The notes beneath the pieces were generated by a model. It made no database searches. It saw nothing but the letters and a program-made list of their open reading frames with translations, and was not told the DNA's origin. From assembly GCF_017348835.2 (NCBI RefSeq), contig NZ_CP071375.1: a DNA stretch of 64,000 bases; one strand, 5' to 3'. The stretch comes from Escherichia coli (lineage in GTDB: Bacteria > Pseudomonadota > Gammaproteobacteria > Enterobacterales > Enterobacteriaceae). The translations under genes were made by a program, and so were the position numbers. This document shows, one piece after another, positions 23,388 through 29,236 of the stretch (positions within the stretch are counted from its first letter, which is position 1; each line of letters opens with the position of its first letter).

Positions 23388-24274
23388 TGCCACTGCTGGA
23401 TAAGCTGCGTGAGCAGTACGGGGTCGGACCGGTATGCAGCGAACTGCATATTGCCCCGTCAACGTATTACCATTGTCAGCAACAGCGACATCATCCGGAT
23501 AAACGCAGTGCCCGTGCGCAGCACGATGACTGGCTGAAGAAAGAGATACAGCGCGTATACGATGAAAATCACCAGGTATACGGTGTGCGTAAAGTCTGGC
23601 GTCAGTTGTTACGGGAAGGTATCAGAGTGGCCAGATGCACTGTGGCACGTCTCATGGCAGTTATGGGACTTGCCGGTGTTCTCCGGGGTAAAAAGGTCCG
23701 CACTACCGTCAGCCGGAAAGCCGTTGCCGCATGCGACCGCGTAAACCGTCAGTTCGTGGCAGAACGTCCAGACCAGTTGTGGGTGGCTGATTTTACCTGG
23801 GTAAGCACATGGCAGGGCTTCGTTTATGTGGCGTTCATCATTGATGTGTTCGCCGGATACATCGTGGGATGGCAGGTCTCATCATCCATGGAAACAACAT
23901 TCGTGCTGGATGCACTGGAGCAGGCGTTGTGGGCCCGTCGGCCGTCCGGCACAATCCATCACAGTGATAAAGGTTCTCAGTATGTATCGCTGGCCTACAC
24001 GCAGCGGCTTAAGGAAGCCGGATTACTGGCATCAACAGGGAGTACTGGCGACTCGTATGACAACGCGATGGCTGAGAGCATCAATGGTCTTTACAAAGCG
24101 GAGGTAATACACCGTAAGAGCTGGAAAAACCGGACAGAAGTGGAACTGGCCACACTAACGTGGGTGGACTGGTATAACAATCGACGATTGCTGGAAAGGC
24201 TGGGCCATATTCCTCCGGCAGAAGCAGAAAAAGCTTATTATGCTTCCATCGGAAATAATGATCTGGCAGCCTGA
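23387..24274 (+). CDS. IS3-family transposase OrfB (DDE catalytic domain; normally expressed as OrfAB fusion by -1 frameshift)
   Basis: 295-aa ORF overlapping OrfA stop in -1 frame; DDE-type integrase-core features (…HSDKGSQYVS…); A-rich run ggaaaaaataatg at the overlap. Confidence 0.85.
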   Translation: MPLLDKLREQYGVGPVCSELHIAPSTYYHCQQQRHHPDKRSARAQHDDWLKKEIQRVYDENHQVYGVRKVWRQLLREGIRVARCTVARLMAVMGLAGVLRGKKVRTTVSRKAVAACDRVNRQFVAERPDQLWVADFTWVSTWQGFVYVAFIIDVFAGYIVGWQVSSSMETTFVLDALEQALWARRPSGTIHHSDKGSQYVSLAYTQRLKEAGLLASTGSTGDSYDNAMAESINGLYKAEVIHRKSWKNRTEVELATLTWVDWYNNRRLLERLGHIPPAEAEKAYYASIGNNDLAA

Positions 24275-24366
24275 GTTCACAGATAAAACACTCTCCAGGA
24301 AACCCGGGGCGGTTCAGTATAATGCCACTGCATAACTGATTCCCATTTCGTAGAGGCTGTTAACTC

Positions 24367-24398
24367 TGTATCAAAGTCCTGACAAAGGACTGTATCAA
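24367..24398. promoter_or_regulatory. Operator-like composite repeat upstream of the 534-aa orphan gene
   Basis: tgtatcaa AGTCCT gacaa AGGACT gtatcaa: 6-bp palindromic arms flanked by direct tgtatcaa repeats, about 50 bp upstream of the ATG; function inferred only. Confidence 0.3.
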
Positions 24399-24445
24399 GT
24401 TTCTCTACTGAAACAGCTATGCAATAGACGGAAGAATTTAACATT

Positions 24446-26050
24446 ATGGTAACTAAAAAGGTAAAAACAAACCACCCGTACTATCGTGTTTTATCTGGCA
24501 CCTCCATGCCGTTTCCCCACATACATGAAGCTGTTTCCGAACAGTTGCTTCTACTCATTTTCAAAGCACGCAGATTGTATCTGGATCCAGAATATCGTCC
24601 CTGGTTTGATGAACAACATCGGATTCTCTCGGCATTACGCGCTAACACAAAACTACAAAATATTTTAGAGCAAAATAGAGAGGACTACTCCATAGGTGAG
24701 ACCGATAATCCACTATCTAAAGAGCTGTATGCTGCTTTTCAGGTTATGTGCCATTTATACAATGGTTTTGATAACAGACTCGTCAGCCTGAAAACCTGGG
24801 GAGATATGAACAGGGAACCAACAGCAAAATTTGTCGGCCAAAATAGTGGTGGCTGGAAAACACCTGAGATGGAAGAATTCGTCAGAAACGATTTGTTCAA
24901 TATTCTGACAGATTGCAAAGCTCATTGCTCACCACTTCCCGCTCTGGTTCGACAAGGATATTGCCATCAGGATCTTTCTGTTGCGCACTCATGTACTAAA
25001 GAATTACTGGAACAACTGAACCGATACCATCAAATTGATGAATCAGCGATACTTGCCAGAACCCTTGGTTTGGCTATTAACAACTGCTATCACTCAAAAA
25101 CAGAGATTCCTGAATGGCTTTCTCCTTTTGAAAATGAATACAAAAGTCCCTGGAATTGTGAGAAACCAGATACTAACGATGTGAGTAAACTTAGAAAACA
25201 ATTGCTAACAATCGGGCGTACAGAATTCGTGGACAAAATGTTTTCGCTAGCCAACAAAAATGCAACAAAGATAATATATGATGGATACGTTAAACTTTAT
25301 GCTCTGGAAATATATGAATGGTTAAATAAATTAGTGCAATATTTTAAAGGAAATGATTTTATTCGTTACACCTGGAAATTCACAACAATTATTTCCGATG
25401 AAAGTGACACGATTGAAAACACCACCGCATGGGAAAAAGACTATTGTCAAATCACTATACAGCGCGATGAACTTCTGAAACTGATTTATACCAATACCCT
25501 GCAGGATGCAGCAATGAATCTTGCTGGTTGCCTGCAACAGGCATACATAGAACCGTTAAAAAGGGAAATAAATTATCCAGGAATAAACATTGATGCAAAA
25601 GAGCGTGAAATTAGAAAATCTATTGAATTCAGGAGCGAACTGAATAACTTCACAAACATCATGAAACAACTGGAAACATTTGAAAAATGGTATAATGCCA
25701 ATAAAATTCTGTTGGTAAGTAACAAAAAGAAACGTACAGAAAAGATTGACGTGAATATTCGTCTTGCAGGACTGAAAGGCTATGATCTGAATGAAGGTAT
25801 ACCTGATGGTCAGGGACGCAAAATTAAAGATGGTGTGAATGAACTCGTCAAGGCAGATGGCAGTCTACAACTTCCACAAGATATCAGTGACACTTCGCTT
25901 AACCGTTACCGTCAAGCAGTTCAACACATTATTAAGGATGAGATCGACACGTTGCTGATAGCACAGAGGGAAAAAAATAAAATAAATCCATATAGCGAAG
26001 ATAGATACTCTATACGACCTTTATGGGGAAAATGTCTGGTCGAACAGTAA
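24446..26050 (+). CDS. hypothetical protein, 534 aa, no recognisable family (orphan accessory gene; AT-rich)
   Basis: Long uninterrupted ORF in visibly AT-rich DNA; no P-loop, no transmembrane segments, no signal peptide by eye; Cys/His cluster CKAHC...GYCH...HSC near residues 155-185; not recognised as any K-12 protein. Confidence 0.6.
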   Translation: MVTKKVKTNHPYYRVLSGTSMPFPHIHEAVSEQLLLLIFKARRLYLDPEYRPWFDEQHRILSALRANTKLQNILEQNREDYSIGETDNPLSKELYAAFQVMCHLYNGFDNRLVSLKTWGDMNREPTAKFVGQNSGGWKTPEMEEFVRNDLFNILTDCKAHCSPLPALVRQGYCHQDLSVAHSCTKELLEQLNRYHQIDESAILARTLGLAINNCYHSKTEIPEWLSPFENEYKSPWNCEKPDTNDVSKLRKQLLTIGRTEFVDKMFSLANKNATKIIYDGYVKLYALEIYEWLNKLVQYFKGNDFIRYTWKFTTIISDESDTIENTTAWEKDYCQITIQRDELLKLIYTNTLQDAAMNLAGCLQQAYIEPLKREINYPGINIDAKEREIRKSIEFRSELNNFTNIMKQLETFEKWYNANKILLVSNKKKRTEKIDVNIRLAGLKGYDLNEGIPDGQGRKIKDGVNELVKADGSLQLPQDISDTSLNRYRQAVQHIIKDEIDTLLIAQREKNKINPYSEDRYSIRPLWGKCLVEQ

Positions 26051-26062
26051 CTCACTGAGAAA

Positions 26063-26085
26063 GGGGATAGCAGTTCGCTATCCCC
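26063..26085. terminator. Hairpin between the convergent orphan genes
   Basis: ggggatagc agtt cgctatcccc inverted repeat seen directly; no U-tract. Confidence 0.35.
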
Positions 26086-26132
26086 AAGGGAGACTTTCCA
26101 GCAAGATCTCAAAAAACGAGACACTCGGCAAA

Positions 26133-26729
26133 TTATGCGGCTTTACCATTAACAGATTCAGCCACAAGAACGACAGCGTGTCTGTTTCGCTCAGGATGTT
26201 CACTCCAGATTTCTGATTCCGGGATGCTTTTCCCGTCATAACTGATCCGTTCGCCATCAAACGGGTAATACCGTGCGGAATCAGTATCTAAAATAAACAC
26301 CTTCAGATTCGTTGAACGACGCGCAATATGCTGCCAGAGAGCTTTACCTCCTTCATATTGCTCGTTATCACTTAATAGTACAACGCCCGCTTTTGTGACT
26401 ATCGTTTCATAAACAAACGTTGCAAGACCAACATCACGTACAGCGCCATCGACAACAATCCCTTCAATCTGAGCAACATCCTGTTCTTCCCAGAATTTCT
26501 GGACAAACACGCCTTCAAGCCGGGGACGACGCTGAAGCTCCAGAGTGGCAACAACCTTATGGCGAACATCACCATCAATAACAGAAGGTGCAGCTTCGAT
26601 TACCGCAGCAAACGGAGTCTTTGGATCCCAGATGATCTGGTAAAGCACGCCCTGAATAGTTACTCCATCCAGTATCGAAAAACGACGAGCTACAGTAGCA
26701 GGGGAGTAAGACATTGGAATTACAGCCAT
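26133..26729 (-). CDS. hypothetical protein, about 198 aa (orphan accessory gene)
   Basis: Track ORF 26133..26759 starts at a GTG; the downstream ATG at 26729 (MAVIPMSYSPATVARR) is preceded by a good Shine-Dalgarno (agagggga) and is preferred; soluble protein with no recognisable motif; same strand as integrase. Confidence 0.55.
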   Translation of the reverse strand: MAVIPMSYSPATVARRFSILDGVTIQGVLYQIIWDPKTPFAAVIEAAPSVIDGDVRHKVVATLELQRRPRLEGVFVQKFWEEQDVAQIEGIVVDGAVRDVGLATFVYETIVTKAGVVLLSDNEQYEGGKALWQHIARRSTNLKVFILDTDSARYYPFDGERISYDGKSIPESEIWSEHPERNRHAVVLVAESVNGKAA

Positions 26730-26858
26730 TTTTGAATCCCCTCTGAGTAATACCGGCACGAAAATTTACCTCAATAATTATAGTAAACAATACAAGAACC
26801 AAGTGCATCAACAATACCCATCAATTGTACACAATTCGTACAGCGACCAGGAACTCCC

Positions 26859-28175
26859 TCACCTTCTGCCAAACAGATTGACAACATTATTGCCTGTTTG
26901 CTGTTGATAGTTATTAACCCGGTCCTCCCAGATCTCAAGTGCTCTGCGTTTTTCTGGCAAATAATCGTATCGATCATAATGTTTTGAACTGACATCGTTC
27001 AACGCATGATTTTGAATACGATCGCGGATTTCCTTACTGATCCCAGCTTCTCCCATTAACGTTTTACAGGTCCGACGTAAGTCACGTGCTGTAAAAATTT
27101 TAAAGTCAGGATTAAAAGCCCGGAAATACATGATAGCGCGAGCCAGACTGTCCGTACGAACCGGACGCTTACCATTAGTCGAAAGTGGAAAAATGTAAGG
27201 GCTGGATTTTTCTTTTGTTAACTCCTGCACACAGGATAATTCCTGTAATGCTGATTCAGTCAACGGTATCAAATGCTCTCGTTTATTTTTAGAGACATCA
27301 GCAGTCACCAGCAGCGTTTTTTGTTGAAAATCAACATCACACCACTGACTGGCGATCATTTCGAAGGGACGTTGCCCTCCGGTATAGATACAGAATCGGA
27401 TCAAATGTTGCATCAATAATCCAACGTTGGTTGCTTCAGCAAAATGTTCCATTAGAAAACGCAACTCTTCAAGTGTCAGCCAGGTATCACCGACTTTTTC
27501 AGCAGATGACTGTTTCGGTATCACTGACACCGGATTTGCCTCCAGCCCAAAAGTAATCCCTGCACTTGTGTTCATCGGATCGTTATCTGCTTTCAGTCCA
27601 TAGTTAAATGCAGCCATCAGGTAAGAACGGATCCGGTTAGAGTGAACCACAGCACCACGCTGAATGATCCCGGCCAGGATATGTTTAATCTGTCCGGAAG
27701 TCACATCTTTAGCTTTAGTTTCACGGGGGATCACTGTATAGCATTCATTTTCAAGGCGTTTCAGAACATCCTGCCATGTCCTCTTATTATCAATTTTCAT
27801 TTTGTTAACATAACCATGAATCAATGCTTCAAATGAGCCCTGTGATTGATGGAGTTGTATCCGCTGCTGTTCTGCAAACTGTTGTCGTTCCAGTTCTGCC
27901 TGGGGATCCTTTCCTTCAATGAGCCAGGCACCATACTTTTTTGCCAGTTCATTCGCTGTGGCCAGTTTCATCTCAGGCCATATACCCAATTGAATGAATC
28001 TTTCTTTTTTCCCTTTTTCCACGTAATAGCGGAAATAGAAAATCTTGCTGCCAGAAGACTGAACTTTGACACCAAGTCGTCCAGTGCCACGTTGAGAGCT
28101 GTTGCTCCAGACATAGAACGATGTCTTTTTTGCTTTCAATGCTCGGATGGCTGTTTCAGTAAGATTGACGGCCAT
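26859..28175 (-). CDS. int: site-specific tyrosine recombinase, P4-type integrase (N-terminal arm-binding DUF4102-like domain)
   Basis: 438-aa ORF; N-terminus LTETAIRALKAKKTSFYVWSN...YFRYYVEKGKKERFIQLGIWPEMKLATANE matches the P4/CP4-57 integrase pattern; C-terminal R...HxxR...Y-type catalytic region (ARDLRRTCKT, HALNDVSSKHYDRYDY); Shine-Dalgarno aagagg upstream; adjacent to tRNA fragment. Confidence 0.85.
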   Translation of the reverse strand: MAVNLTETAIRALKAKKTSFYVWSNSSQRGTGRLGVKVQSSGSKIFYFRYYVEKGKKERFIQLGIWPEMKLATANELAKKYGAWLIEGKDPQAELERQQFAEQQRIQLHQSQGSFEALIHGYVNKMKIDNKRTWQDVLKRLENECYTVIPRETKAKDVTSGQIKHILAGIIQRGAVVHSNRIRSYLMAAFNYGLKADNDPMNTSAGITFGLEANPVSVIPKQSSAEKVGDTWLTLEELRFLMEHFAEATNVGLLMQHLIRFCIYTGGQRPFEMIASQWCDVDFQQKTLLVTADVSKNKREHLIPLTESALQELSCVQELTKEKSSPYIFPLSTNGKRPVRTDSLARAIMYFRAFNPDFKIFTARDLRRTCKTLMGEAGISKEIRDRIQNHALNDVSSKHYDRYDYLPEKRRALEIWEDRVNNYQQQTGNNVVNLFGRR

Positions 28176-28371
28176 AGAACCTCTTTTCTAAACCAGTAAC
28201 AATCAGAATAACTCGTGATTTTGGGTCAGGTAATGGGTCAGGTAACGATCGTACAATGAAGAAAAAACGGAACCAAGCGGAGACAGAGAAAATTACATAA
28301 TTCATTGATTATAAACAACTAATAAAGCAATCGCGAACAAACAAAAACAATATAGAACGAACTTGCCTCAT

Positions 28372-28418
28372 GACTCATAATCGCTTGGTCGCTGGTTCAA
28401 GTCCAGCAGGGGCCACCA
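28372..28418 (+). tRNA. ileX: tRNA-Ile2 (ileX, anticodon CAU/LAU) 3'-terminal 47-nt fragment; island attachment-site repeat, not a complete tRNA gene
   Basis: GACTCATAATCGCTTGGTCGCTGGTTCAAGTCCAGCAGGGGCCACCA matches the anticodon loop through CCA end of ileX as I recall it; the sequence 5' of it cannot pair with the acceptor 3' strand (no GGCCCCT), so the D-arm and 5' acceptor are absent. Confidence 0.7.
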
Positions 28419-28427
28419 GATACAGTA

Positions 28428-28461
28428 AAGGCTGACGAGAAATCGTCAGCCTTTTTCTTTT
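28428..28461. terminator. Rho-independent terminator (native ileX terminator, also downstream of yqjH)
   Basis: aaaggctgacga gaaa tcgtcagccttt hairpin followed by tttcttttc. Confidence 0.6.
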
Positions 28462-28471
28462 CATATATCAG

Positions 28472-29236
28472 TTACTTCGCGTGCCAGTAAGCCGCTGCAC
28501 GTACCTGTTGAGGGTCATACTGTTCCGCTTCAAAGCGACGGCTTAAATTCTTCACCACCTTCCCTTCGCCGGTTATCCAGATGAAGTAATCATCGGCAGG
28601 GATTTGCATCTGCGCCAGACGCGCATCTACCGCCTGCTCATCATGTGCCAGCCATTCGATATTAAAACCATCAAGGTGCGCGAGATAATCCTGACAGGCG
28701 TTATCCCGCACGCTAACCAGCGCGCTAACTTGCGGTTTAACGGCAAGTTTGCTCAACGTTTCCAGGCGGCGGCGCAGTGCGGGCATTCCGGATTCATCGC
28801 AGACATACAGCTGATACGCGTAATCTTCCGGCACCACCAGCGAACCGCGCGGACCTGCCACCGTGAGTTTATCGCCCGGTTGGGCCTGCATTGCCCAGCT
28901 ACTGGCGACGCCGTCTTCGTGAATAAAGAAATCAATCGCCAGTTCATGGCGTAGTTCGTCATACAACGGCGTATAGTCACGCGACGGTGGGCGTGGTCCT
29001 TCCGGCCAGACGATGCCCTCTTCCGTTACCGTTGGCGGCACAAAGTGAGCGTCAGGTTGAGGAAAGAAGAGTTTGCTGTGATCGTCAAAGCCGCGCGATG
29101 TAAAACCGTCCAGCGCCTCGCCGCCAAGGACAATGCGCTGAAAACCGGCGCTGATACGCTCAACGCGTAGCACAGTCAGTTCACGGAACCGCAGATCATT
29201 GCGAACGCGCTGCGGGTAGCGGGGGGTGTTATTCAT
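28472..29236 (-). CDS. yqjH: siderophore-interacting / NADPH-dependent ferric-chelate reductase
   Basis: 254-aa ORF; recognised as YqjH (NfeF); FAD-binding siderophore-interacting family. Confidence 0.85.
   Translation of the reverse strand: MNNTPRYPQRVRNDLRFRELTVLRVERISAGFQRIVLGGEALDGFTSRGFDDHSKLFFPQPDAHFVPPTVTEEGIVWPEGPRPPSRDYTPLYDELRHELAIDFFIHEDGVASSWAMQAQPGDKLTVAGPRGSLVVPEDYAYQLYVCDESGMPALRRRLETLSKLAVKPQVSALVSVRDNACQDYLAHLDGFNIEWLAHDEQAVDARLAQMQIPADDYFIWITGEGKVVKNLSRRFEAEQYDPQQVRAAAYWHAK

Follow-up and report, generated by a model that had tools for sequence, protein, structure and literature searches.

What does the small gene beside the integrase of an Escherichia coli island encode, and does it act alone or together with the gene that converges on it? 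The gene in question, here called the focal gene, lies at 26133..26729 on the minus strand of the window, a 64,000-nucleotide stretch of E. coli chromosome (contig NZ_CP071375.1 of assembly GCF_017348835.2). It encodes a protein of 198 amino acids (aa) from ATG 26729. We recovered the open reading frame (ORF) as an earlier note on this DNA had given it, RefSeq annotates identical limits as a hypothetical protein (WP_000268404.1), and the gene is real. The note had called the product an orphan and had left its role between a regulator, an immunity or antitoxin-like partner of the convergent gene, which encodes 534 aa, and unrelated cargo. Our analysis indicates that the focal gene is very probably an autonomous cargo gene whose product has the fold of the GNAT superfamily. 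The overall explanation that we favour, with some confidence, is a stand-alone GNAT cargo gene of mobile elements that resembles pmgF of P1.

Predicted fold and conserved motif

An AlphaFold model of the focal protein (predicted local distance difference test score, pLDDT, 90.9; predicted template modelling score, pTM, 0.87) displays a mixed alpha/beta fold with the beta4-alpha3-beta5-alpha4 arrangement of a GNAT core. Structure comparisons named the GNAT-like domain of isocitrate lyase 2, NatD and insect arylalkylamine N-acetyltransferases. A Foldseek search of the AlphaFold database returned family members from Escherichia, Shigella, Rahnella, Buttiauxella, Pectobacterium, Vibrio, Yersinia and Dickeya, followed by more distant GNATs; some of these family members are titled N-acetyltransferase domain proteins. 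Motif A of GNATs, Q/R-x-x-G-x-G/A, the loop that binds the pyrophosphate of CoA, is present as R98-D-V-G101-L-A103; among 113 family members, 85 conserve position [R/Q/K]98, 95 conserve G101 and 94 conserve [A/G]103. Residues Q87, Y107, S120, D121, W132, Y164 and W175 are near-invariant. When the family profile was compared with PDB, the sole match, a weak one, aligned the beta4-alpha3 region to RGKGLA of the arylalkylamine N-acetyltransferase 4fd5.

Judged by the model, the fold is that of a GNAT with its motif for coenzyme A (CoA) binding kept. The assignment itself is ordinary and was partly anticipated by automatic annotations. The remote-homology and structure check that had been proposed for this gene thus returned a GNAT fold, and no curated sequence model was significant.

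Distribution of the family

Close relatives of the focal gene are present in 805 of 5426 complete E. coli genomes (~15%), at 731 chromosomal and 129 plasmid places. The protein is not an orphan: an exhaustive search over 1.84 billion representative proteins yielded 285 clusters at 50% identity (E <= 1e-3), nearly all of them 190-235 aa long. PHROG 7522, of unknown function, matches residues 1-198 at E 6e-124. The family has no Pfam or NCBIfam model, searches of NCBIfam, PADLOC and PDB sequences with the 198-aa protein gave nothing significant, and full-text searches with both RefSeq accessions found no paper. The ratio of nonsynonymous to synonymous divergence (dN/dS) is 0.034 against the P1-like copy, for which dS is saturated at ~2, and 0.13-0.25 against other copies of the focal gene. 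The focal protein is under strong purifying selection.

The locus scan used 18 closer sequences; the 113-sequence alignment had no stretch conserved enough. Single-gene loci were found between rsmI and aga genes in Buttiauxella and Cedecea, after a sigma/anti-sigma pair of the extracytoplasmic function type in Pantoea, and ahead of glyQS in genomes of the Erwinia group (Winslowiella, Erwinia). One plasmid has a 73%-identical copy at a distance of 1.3 kb from an Antirestrict-domain gene and beside the F-type transfer genes traM/traA; these surroundings resemble a conjugative plasmid's leading region. A metagenome contig (L006, 2339..3080) bears a 32%-identical copy directly downstream of a different integrase; there the homologue is followed by an Ntox44 toxin-domain gene and then by a small gene that possibly encodes its immunity protein.

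Phages carry the gene as well. On a T4-like contig, a 30%-identical member lies between deoxynucleoside monophosphate kinase and nuclease genes, with topoisomerase II, RNA ligase 1 and NUDIX genes nearby, and on a second phage contig the homologue follows an NAD-dependent DNA ligase gene, with a QueE-like gene nearby. The Ralstonia jumbo phage RsoM2USA has one family member, and some single phage contigs hold two to three paralogues within 5 kb. Two uncultured phage contigs of 92-96 kb, L072 and L073 (1680..6456), show two clear paralogues and a weak third match in 5 kb. Among isolated phage genomes, the distant homologue P0152 found matches only in RsoM2USA and P1-like phages, so that metagenomes are the sole source for the lytic-phage branch.

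Proposed role

We predict that the focal protein is an acyl-CoA-dependent N-acyltransferase of the GNAT superfamily, and that it is probably catalytically active. With acyl-CoA as donor, it would acylate an amine of a protein or small molecule belonging to the host or to a competitor, and this transfer would benefit the carrying element. Because the gene is common to lytic phages, phage-plasmids, plasmids and islands, it most plausibly serves the element against its host or its rivals. The presence of relatives in lytic phages, phage-plasmids and islands, and near a plasmid antirestriction gene, makes counter-defence, host takeover or another form of host modification the most likely role, one that we put forward tentatively.

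A broader proposal, which we regard as doubtful, is that PmgF-like GNATs form a new enzymatic class for counter-defence or host takeover, common to lytic phages, P1-like phage-plasmids, plasmids and integrative islands and disabling a bacterial immune protein or signalling molecule by acetylation; a less likely version of it has the focal protein and the fold-less 534-aa protein form a new defence pair. If the protein is indeed an active acyltransferase directed at hosts or rivals, one enzymatic counter-defence mechanism would span very different element types, and the long-unassigned P1 gene pmgF would acquire a function. The spread of the family over element types makes it a reasonable candidate for counter-defence experiments, and a hypothetical protein in ~15% of complete E. 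coli genomes can be re-annotated as the product of a GNAT-fold cargo gene.

Several observations weigh against this account. With Pfam Acetyltransf_1 the focal protein reaches an i-E of 0.16 and the best-scoring member of the family 1.1e-3, none of the GNAT models in NCBIfam matches the focal protein, and no GNAT sequence model is significant. No substrate can be inferred for the protein, and counter-defence is argued solely from the locations of relatives; the plasmid copy lies on the strand opposite to the antirestriction gene. The validated defence gene PD-T4-3, found beside the focal and 534-aa genes in one island variant, points to defence, not counter-defence. The tight linkage of these two genes on E. 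coli chromosomes, though explained by shared descent, could still reflect a functional tie. Lastly, Buttiauxella and Cedecea have stable relatives in single copy on their chromosomes, a pattern also compatible with a housekeeping-like or detoxifying function.

A detoxifying or resistance acetyltransferase acting on a small molecule (an antibiotic, a microcin, a polyamine or a toxic amino-acid analogue) to the benefit of the host cell is unlikely. Relatives occur in phage contigs of strictly lytic type and in a jumbo phage, where antibiotic resistance brings no obvious gain to the phage, and the protein has no specific similarity to any resistance subfamily. We also find it rather improbable that the protein is a catalytically inactive, GNAT-like scaffold, such as an inhibitor or adaptor, that works through binding. 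Motif A and the polar residues S120, D121 and Q124 of beta5/alpha4 are near-invariant in a family that averages only 23% identity, as would be expected of a cofactor-using active site.

Relation to the convergent 534-aa gene

The reading of the focal gene as autonomous has to be weighed against its linkage to the 534-aa gene (24446..26050, plus strand). A query across both 3' ends was covered to at least 80% in 670 genomes, of 729 E. coli chromosomal places, with the two genes adjacent and convergent. The linkage is also found on E. albertii chromosomes, and the pairing persists where an insertion sequence (IS) or other cargo replaces the integrase. In one variant (L037) the pair stands beside PD-T4-3 and a defence-type protease, and the 534-aa protein evolves fast between alleles, like immune sensors. 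Such data would suit a functional module in which one protein controls the other, be it for defence or as a toxin paired with an enzyme for modification or immunity.

Comparison of island variants points to a different history. Integrase and focal protein are 98-99% identical in variants whose 534-aa proteins fall to 58-60% identity. Over the same island pairs the focal gene has a dS of 0.05-0.20 and the 534-aa gene one of ~1.2, at least six-fold apart. Homology breaks ~10 nt past the focal stop codon, with near identity before the break and divergence after it, the hairpin between the two genes included. Because of these contrasts in identity and dS and the homology break, we take the E. coli linkage to reflect a single island lineage, and the 534-aa gene to be a cassette exchanged against a conserved block of integrase and GNAT genes; the pattern is one of cassette replacement, not of co-divergence.

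The island is a mosaic. The earlier note had reached this view from composition, holding the focal gene to be close to the chromosomal backbone; the identity and dS contrasts and the homology break bear out the mosaic, but the compositional argument fails. The focal gene has a GC content of 46.6% against 51-56% in flanking core genes, and GC at third codon positions (GC3) is 36.2% in the focal gene, 34.8% in the 534-aa gene and 40.5% in the integrase gene, against 55-62% in flanking core genes. In composition, the focal gene is as foreign as its island neighbours.

Each family is also found without the other. No 534-aa homologue accompanies the ~130 P1-like plasmid copies of the focal family or any of its 17 loci outside the genus Escherichia, and none is found with the plasmid copy beside F-type transfer genes or on the lytic phage contigs. 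The 534-aa family (20 clusters) occurs without a GNAT gene in an accessory slot between tail genes S and V of a Klebsiella P2-like prophage, near IS110 in Serratia and next to mnmE. Co-occurrence, which had been suggested as a check, is therefore tight on E. coli chromosomes, but each gene stands alone outside that lineage; the families do not co-occur beyond one element lineage, and the genes do not diverge together. The pair is convergent and forms no operon, and PADLOC 2.0 matched neither protein at E <= 1. We consider a functional module distinctly improbable. The suggestion that the focal protein is a regulator, immunity protein or antitoxin partner is likewise not supported, given that each gene is found alone elsewhere, that shared lineage explains the linkage and that the fold is that of an enzyme and not of a small DNA-binding protein or antitoxin. 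The option of unrelated cargo fits better, since island variants keep integrase and focal gene while the 534-aa protein diverges.

Sequence comparison thus argues that the 534-aa gene is a separate, exchangeable cassette and not an obligate partner. The focal gene would be independent of it, and the two should not be annotated as a pair. The model of the 534-aa protein is mostly alpha-helical; a search with it returned no related fold, and the protein had no match in Pfam, NCBIfam, PADLOC or PHROGs, or by tblastn against phages. The gene is a candidate for a defence or exclusion function exercised alone, and as a separate cassette whose product has no recognisable fold it merits testing against phages. 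It exists as deeply diverged alleles and is the more obscure of the two genes. Immediately upstream of the pair in L037 (2543..4997) are PD-T4-3 (PADLOC E 8e-140) and a trypsin-like protease similar to those associated with defence, and both lie downstream of a prophage tail-fibre and Pin-invertase module.

GNAT toxins of the AtaT, TacT and KacT type acetylate aminoacyl-tRNA. It is very unlikely that the focal protein is a toxin of this kind, belonging to a toxin-antitoxin or abortive-infection pair. The adjacent small antitoxin gene of such pairs, in the same operon and usually of ribbon-helix-helix type, is absent: no small antitoxin ORF lies before or after the focal gene, and the 129-bp gap towards the integrase gene holds no conserved ORF. 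Relatives are solitary in diverse loci, and the gene is intact, common and partnerless in hundreds of genomes.

Relation to P1 PmgF

Returning to the focal gene as stand-alone cargo, we found that its plasmid copies reside on P1-like phage-plasmids. In SJ46, RCS47 and ~30 IMG/VR contigs, an 87%-identical copy (gp016 in SJ46) follows the tail gene bplB and precedes a variable stretch leading to repL, and in P1 this same position is held by pmgF (P1_gp053). P1 PmgF, of 98 aa, aligns solely to focal residues 4-66, with 45% identity. From alignment and position, we regard the focal gene as a full-length PmgF-like gene of which P1 keeps the short form only. The PmgF proteins of P1 and P7 (98 aa; the P1 gene is at L003 4995..5291) and the products of Pantoea megaplasmid genes comprise only the N-terminal third to half, with no CoA-binding core; these short forms could be remnants or a separate short form.

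The name pmgF stands for putative morphogenetic function, and in P1-like genomes the gene follows tail genes on the same strand. A role as a phage morphogenetic protein is barely credible for a product with an enzyme-type fold whose gene occurs in islands and chromosomes that lack virion genes, and pmgF is non-essential in P1 (PMC10695390) and lies in a region that is highly variable among P1-like phage-plasmids (PMC9603915).

Start codons and expression of the focal gene

Two in-frame starts precede the GNAT coding sequence, each with its own Shine-Dalgarno sequence, perhaps giving two protein forms. ATG 26729, the start given in the earlier note, has GAGGGG (26738..26743, minus strand, read from the sequence) 8 nt upstream, and the GGGGA(Y) element of this region is kept in most homologues. 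GTG 26759 is in frame, has its own GAGGT and adds the ten residues MPVLLRGDSK (26730..26759, minus strand), giving a 208-aa form. In homologues at 32-50% identity the amino acids of this extension (MPVLxxGDSxM) are kept while codons vary synonymously, and a few homologues of the focal protein lack the internal Met. The extension is absent or interrupted by stops in L037, L038, L009 and L010, and these homologues must use the internal Met. The ribosome-binding site claimed for ATG 26729 stands, and GTG 26759 with its conserved extension is a plausible start as well. This strain probably produces the 208-aa form.

Upstream of GTG 26759, a candidate promoter and ribosome-binding site can be read from the sequence on the minus strand (26768..26782), with a perfect TATAAT box at 26782..26777 and GAGGT at 26772..26768; a consensus promoter scan did not call the TATAAT site. 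The block ACTAYAATTATTGAGGTA is common to the island copy and to P1-like copies, which have no integrase upstream, and because of this sharing the focal gene may own a promoter, as the block suggests. The integrase gene ends at 26859 on the same strand, 129 bp upstream of the focal gene, as stated previously. A terminator scan predicts no terminator-like site in this gap, and its folding is no better than that of shuffled sequence (z = +0.78), so read-through from the integrase gene is possible and the co-transcription proposed earlier keeps its place. Expression would probably come from a weak promoter of the gene's own, from integrase read-through, or from both.

Downstream, the 82-bp convergent spacer (26051..26132) contains the hairpin that had been described there, a 9-bp stem-loop (GGGGATAGC-loop-GCTATCCCC) at 26063..26085 read from the sequence. 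Taken as 91 nt, the convergent spacer folds better than shuffles (z = -3.7), and in other alleles the stem is preserved through a compensatory G-C to A-T change (compare L033, L036 and L007). Because of this folding and the compensatory change, we take the hairpin to be a real, selected element. Only a weak T-run (TTTCT) follows, and the hairpin went uncalled in the terminator scan. The hairpin is likely a terminator, and the focal transcript would end at it, as would that of the convergent gene.

The surrounding island

The stretch 24300..28500 of the window is identical to strain PE164 and belongs to the E. coli chromosome. Along the locus come gss and pitB, then a truncated pseudogene and an IS3-family element, followed by the 534-aa gene (plus strand), the focal gene (minus), a tyrosine integrase gene (minus), a tRNA-Ile 3' fragment, nfeF, nfeR and aer. 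The integrase (438 aa; 26859..28175, minus strand) is identified by an NCBIfam integrase domain (E 6e-22), PHROG 1 (E 1.5e-45) and its RefSeq annotation. An excisionase or regulator of the integrase was also considered for the focal protein and is ruled out by the enzyme fold and by a separate small helix-turn-helix (HTH) gene on the island.

Between the integrase gene and nfeF lies an unannotated 3' fragment of a tRNA-Ile gene, ~50 nt long (28372..28425, plus strand). ARAGORN found no complete tRNA within the window and Rfam did not recognise the fragment; its identity came from similarity to annotated tRNA-Ile genes of other E. coli, to whose 3' part it is 98-100% identical. It is likely the island's attachment-site repeat on the integrase side.

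At the opposite side stands the IS3-family element (1310 bp; 23007..24316, plus strand), recognised by its transposase ORFs, by inverted repeats read from the sequence (TGAACCGCCCCGG...) and by the annotation in strain PE164. Homology to intact islands begins at 24317, directly past the element, which severs the 534-aa gene from the remainder of the island further left. At the IS junction, the island is joined to a truncated thymidylate-kinase-like pseudogene (22756..22992) near pitB and gss, an IS-mediated rearrangement common to the window and strain PE164. Islands without the IS extend leftwards into a small HTH gene, two hypothetical genes and Gp2-family and YagK/YfjJ genes. Because the island continues leftwards in these strains, we read the locus as the integrase-proximal end of a tRNA-Ile-associated integrative element cut by an IS. 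The focal gene would be an autonomous cargo gene, or moron, of this element, in the slot beside the integrase. In strain C7, the annotation of the intact island comprises the integrase, two cargo genes, HTH, two hypothetical, Gp2-family and YagK/YfjJ genes, and no psu. An E. coli defence-island survey does not mention the genes flanking the locus.

Comparison with known systems

Set against other GNATs such as HAT1 (1bob), the arylalkylamine N-acetyltransferases (4fd5, 4fd7 and 3te4) and Naa40/NatD (4u9w), the focal family falls below every sequence-model threshold. It differs from them in an N-terminal part rich in beta strands and in a loop of ~37 residues between the last two strands, which bears the invariant Y164 and W175. 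The focal protein matches AtaT, TacT and KacT no more closely than it does other GNATs, and its gene differs from theirs in having no adjacent antitoxin.

A precedent for a GNAT in counter-defence is AcrVA5, which is encoded on mobile elements and inactivates Cas12a by acetylation (PMC9114340). It is a small stand-alone GNAT, and the likeness to the focal gene is in concept only; to our knowledge, E. coli lacks Cas12a.

The position of the focal gene resembles the cargo slots of prophages and satellites (the psu-int hotspot of P4-like satellites and the old/tin hotspot of P2; PMC9122126), which likewise are short, high-turnover stretches beside an integrase. The paper describing these P2/P4 hotspots does not mention acetyltransferases. 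In P4-like satellites cargo lies between psu and int, whereas the intact island has no P4 genes such as psu annotated. PD-T4-3 fills the same high-turnover stretch beside the integrase in one island variant.

The focal protein also compares closely with P1 PmgF, to which residues 4-66 align, and with the families PHROG 7522 and PHROG 7349, the match to PHROG 7522 being full-length. P1 PmgF, unlike the focal protein, is without the whole CoA-binding core, and the copy in the window lies in a chromosomal integrase island and not in a P1-like genome; in SJ46 and RCS47, full-length copies occupy the pmgF position.
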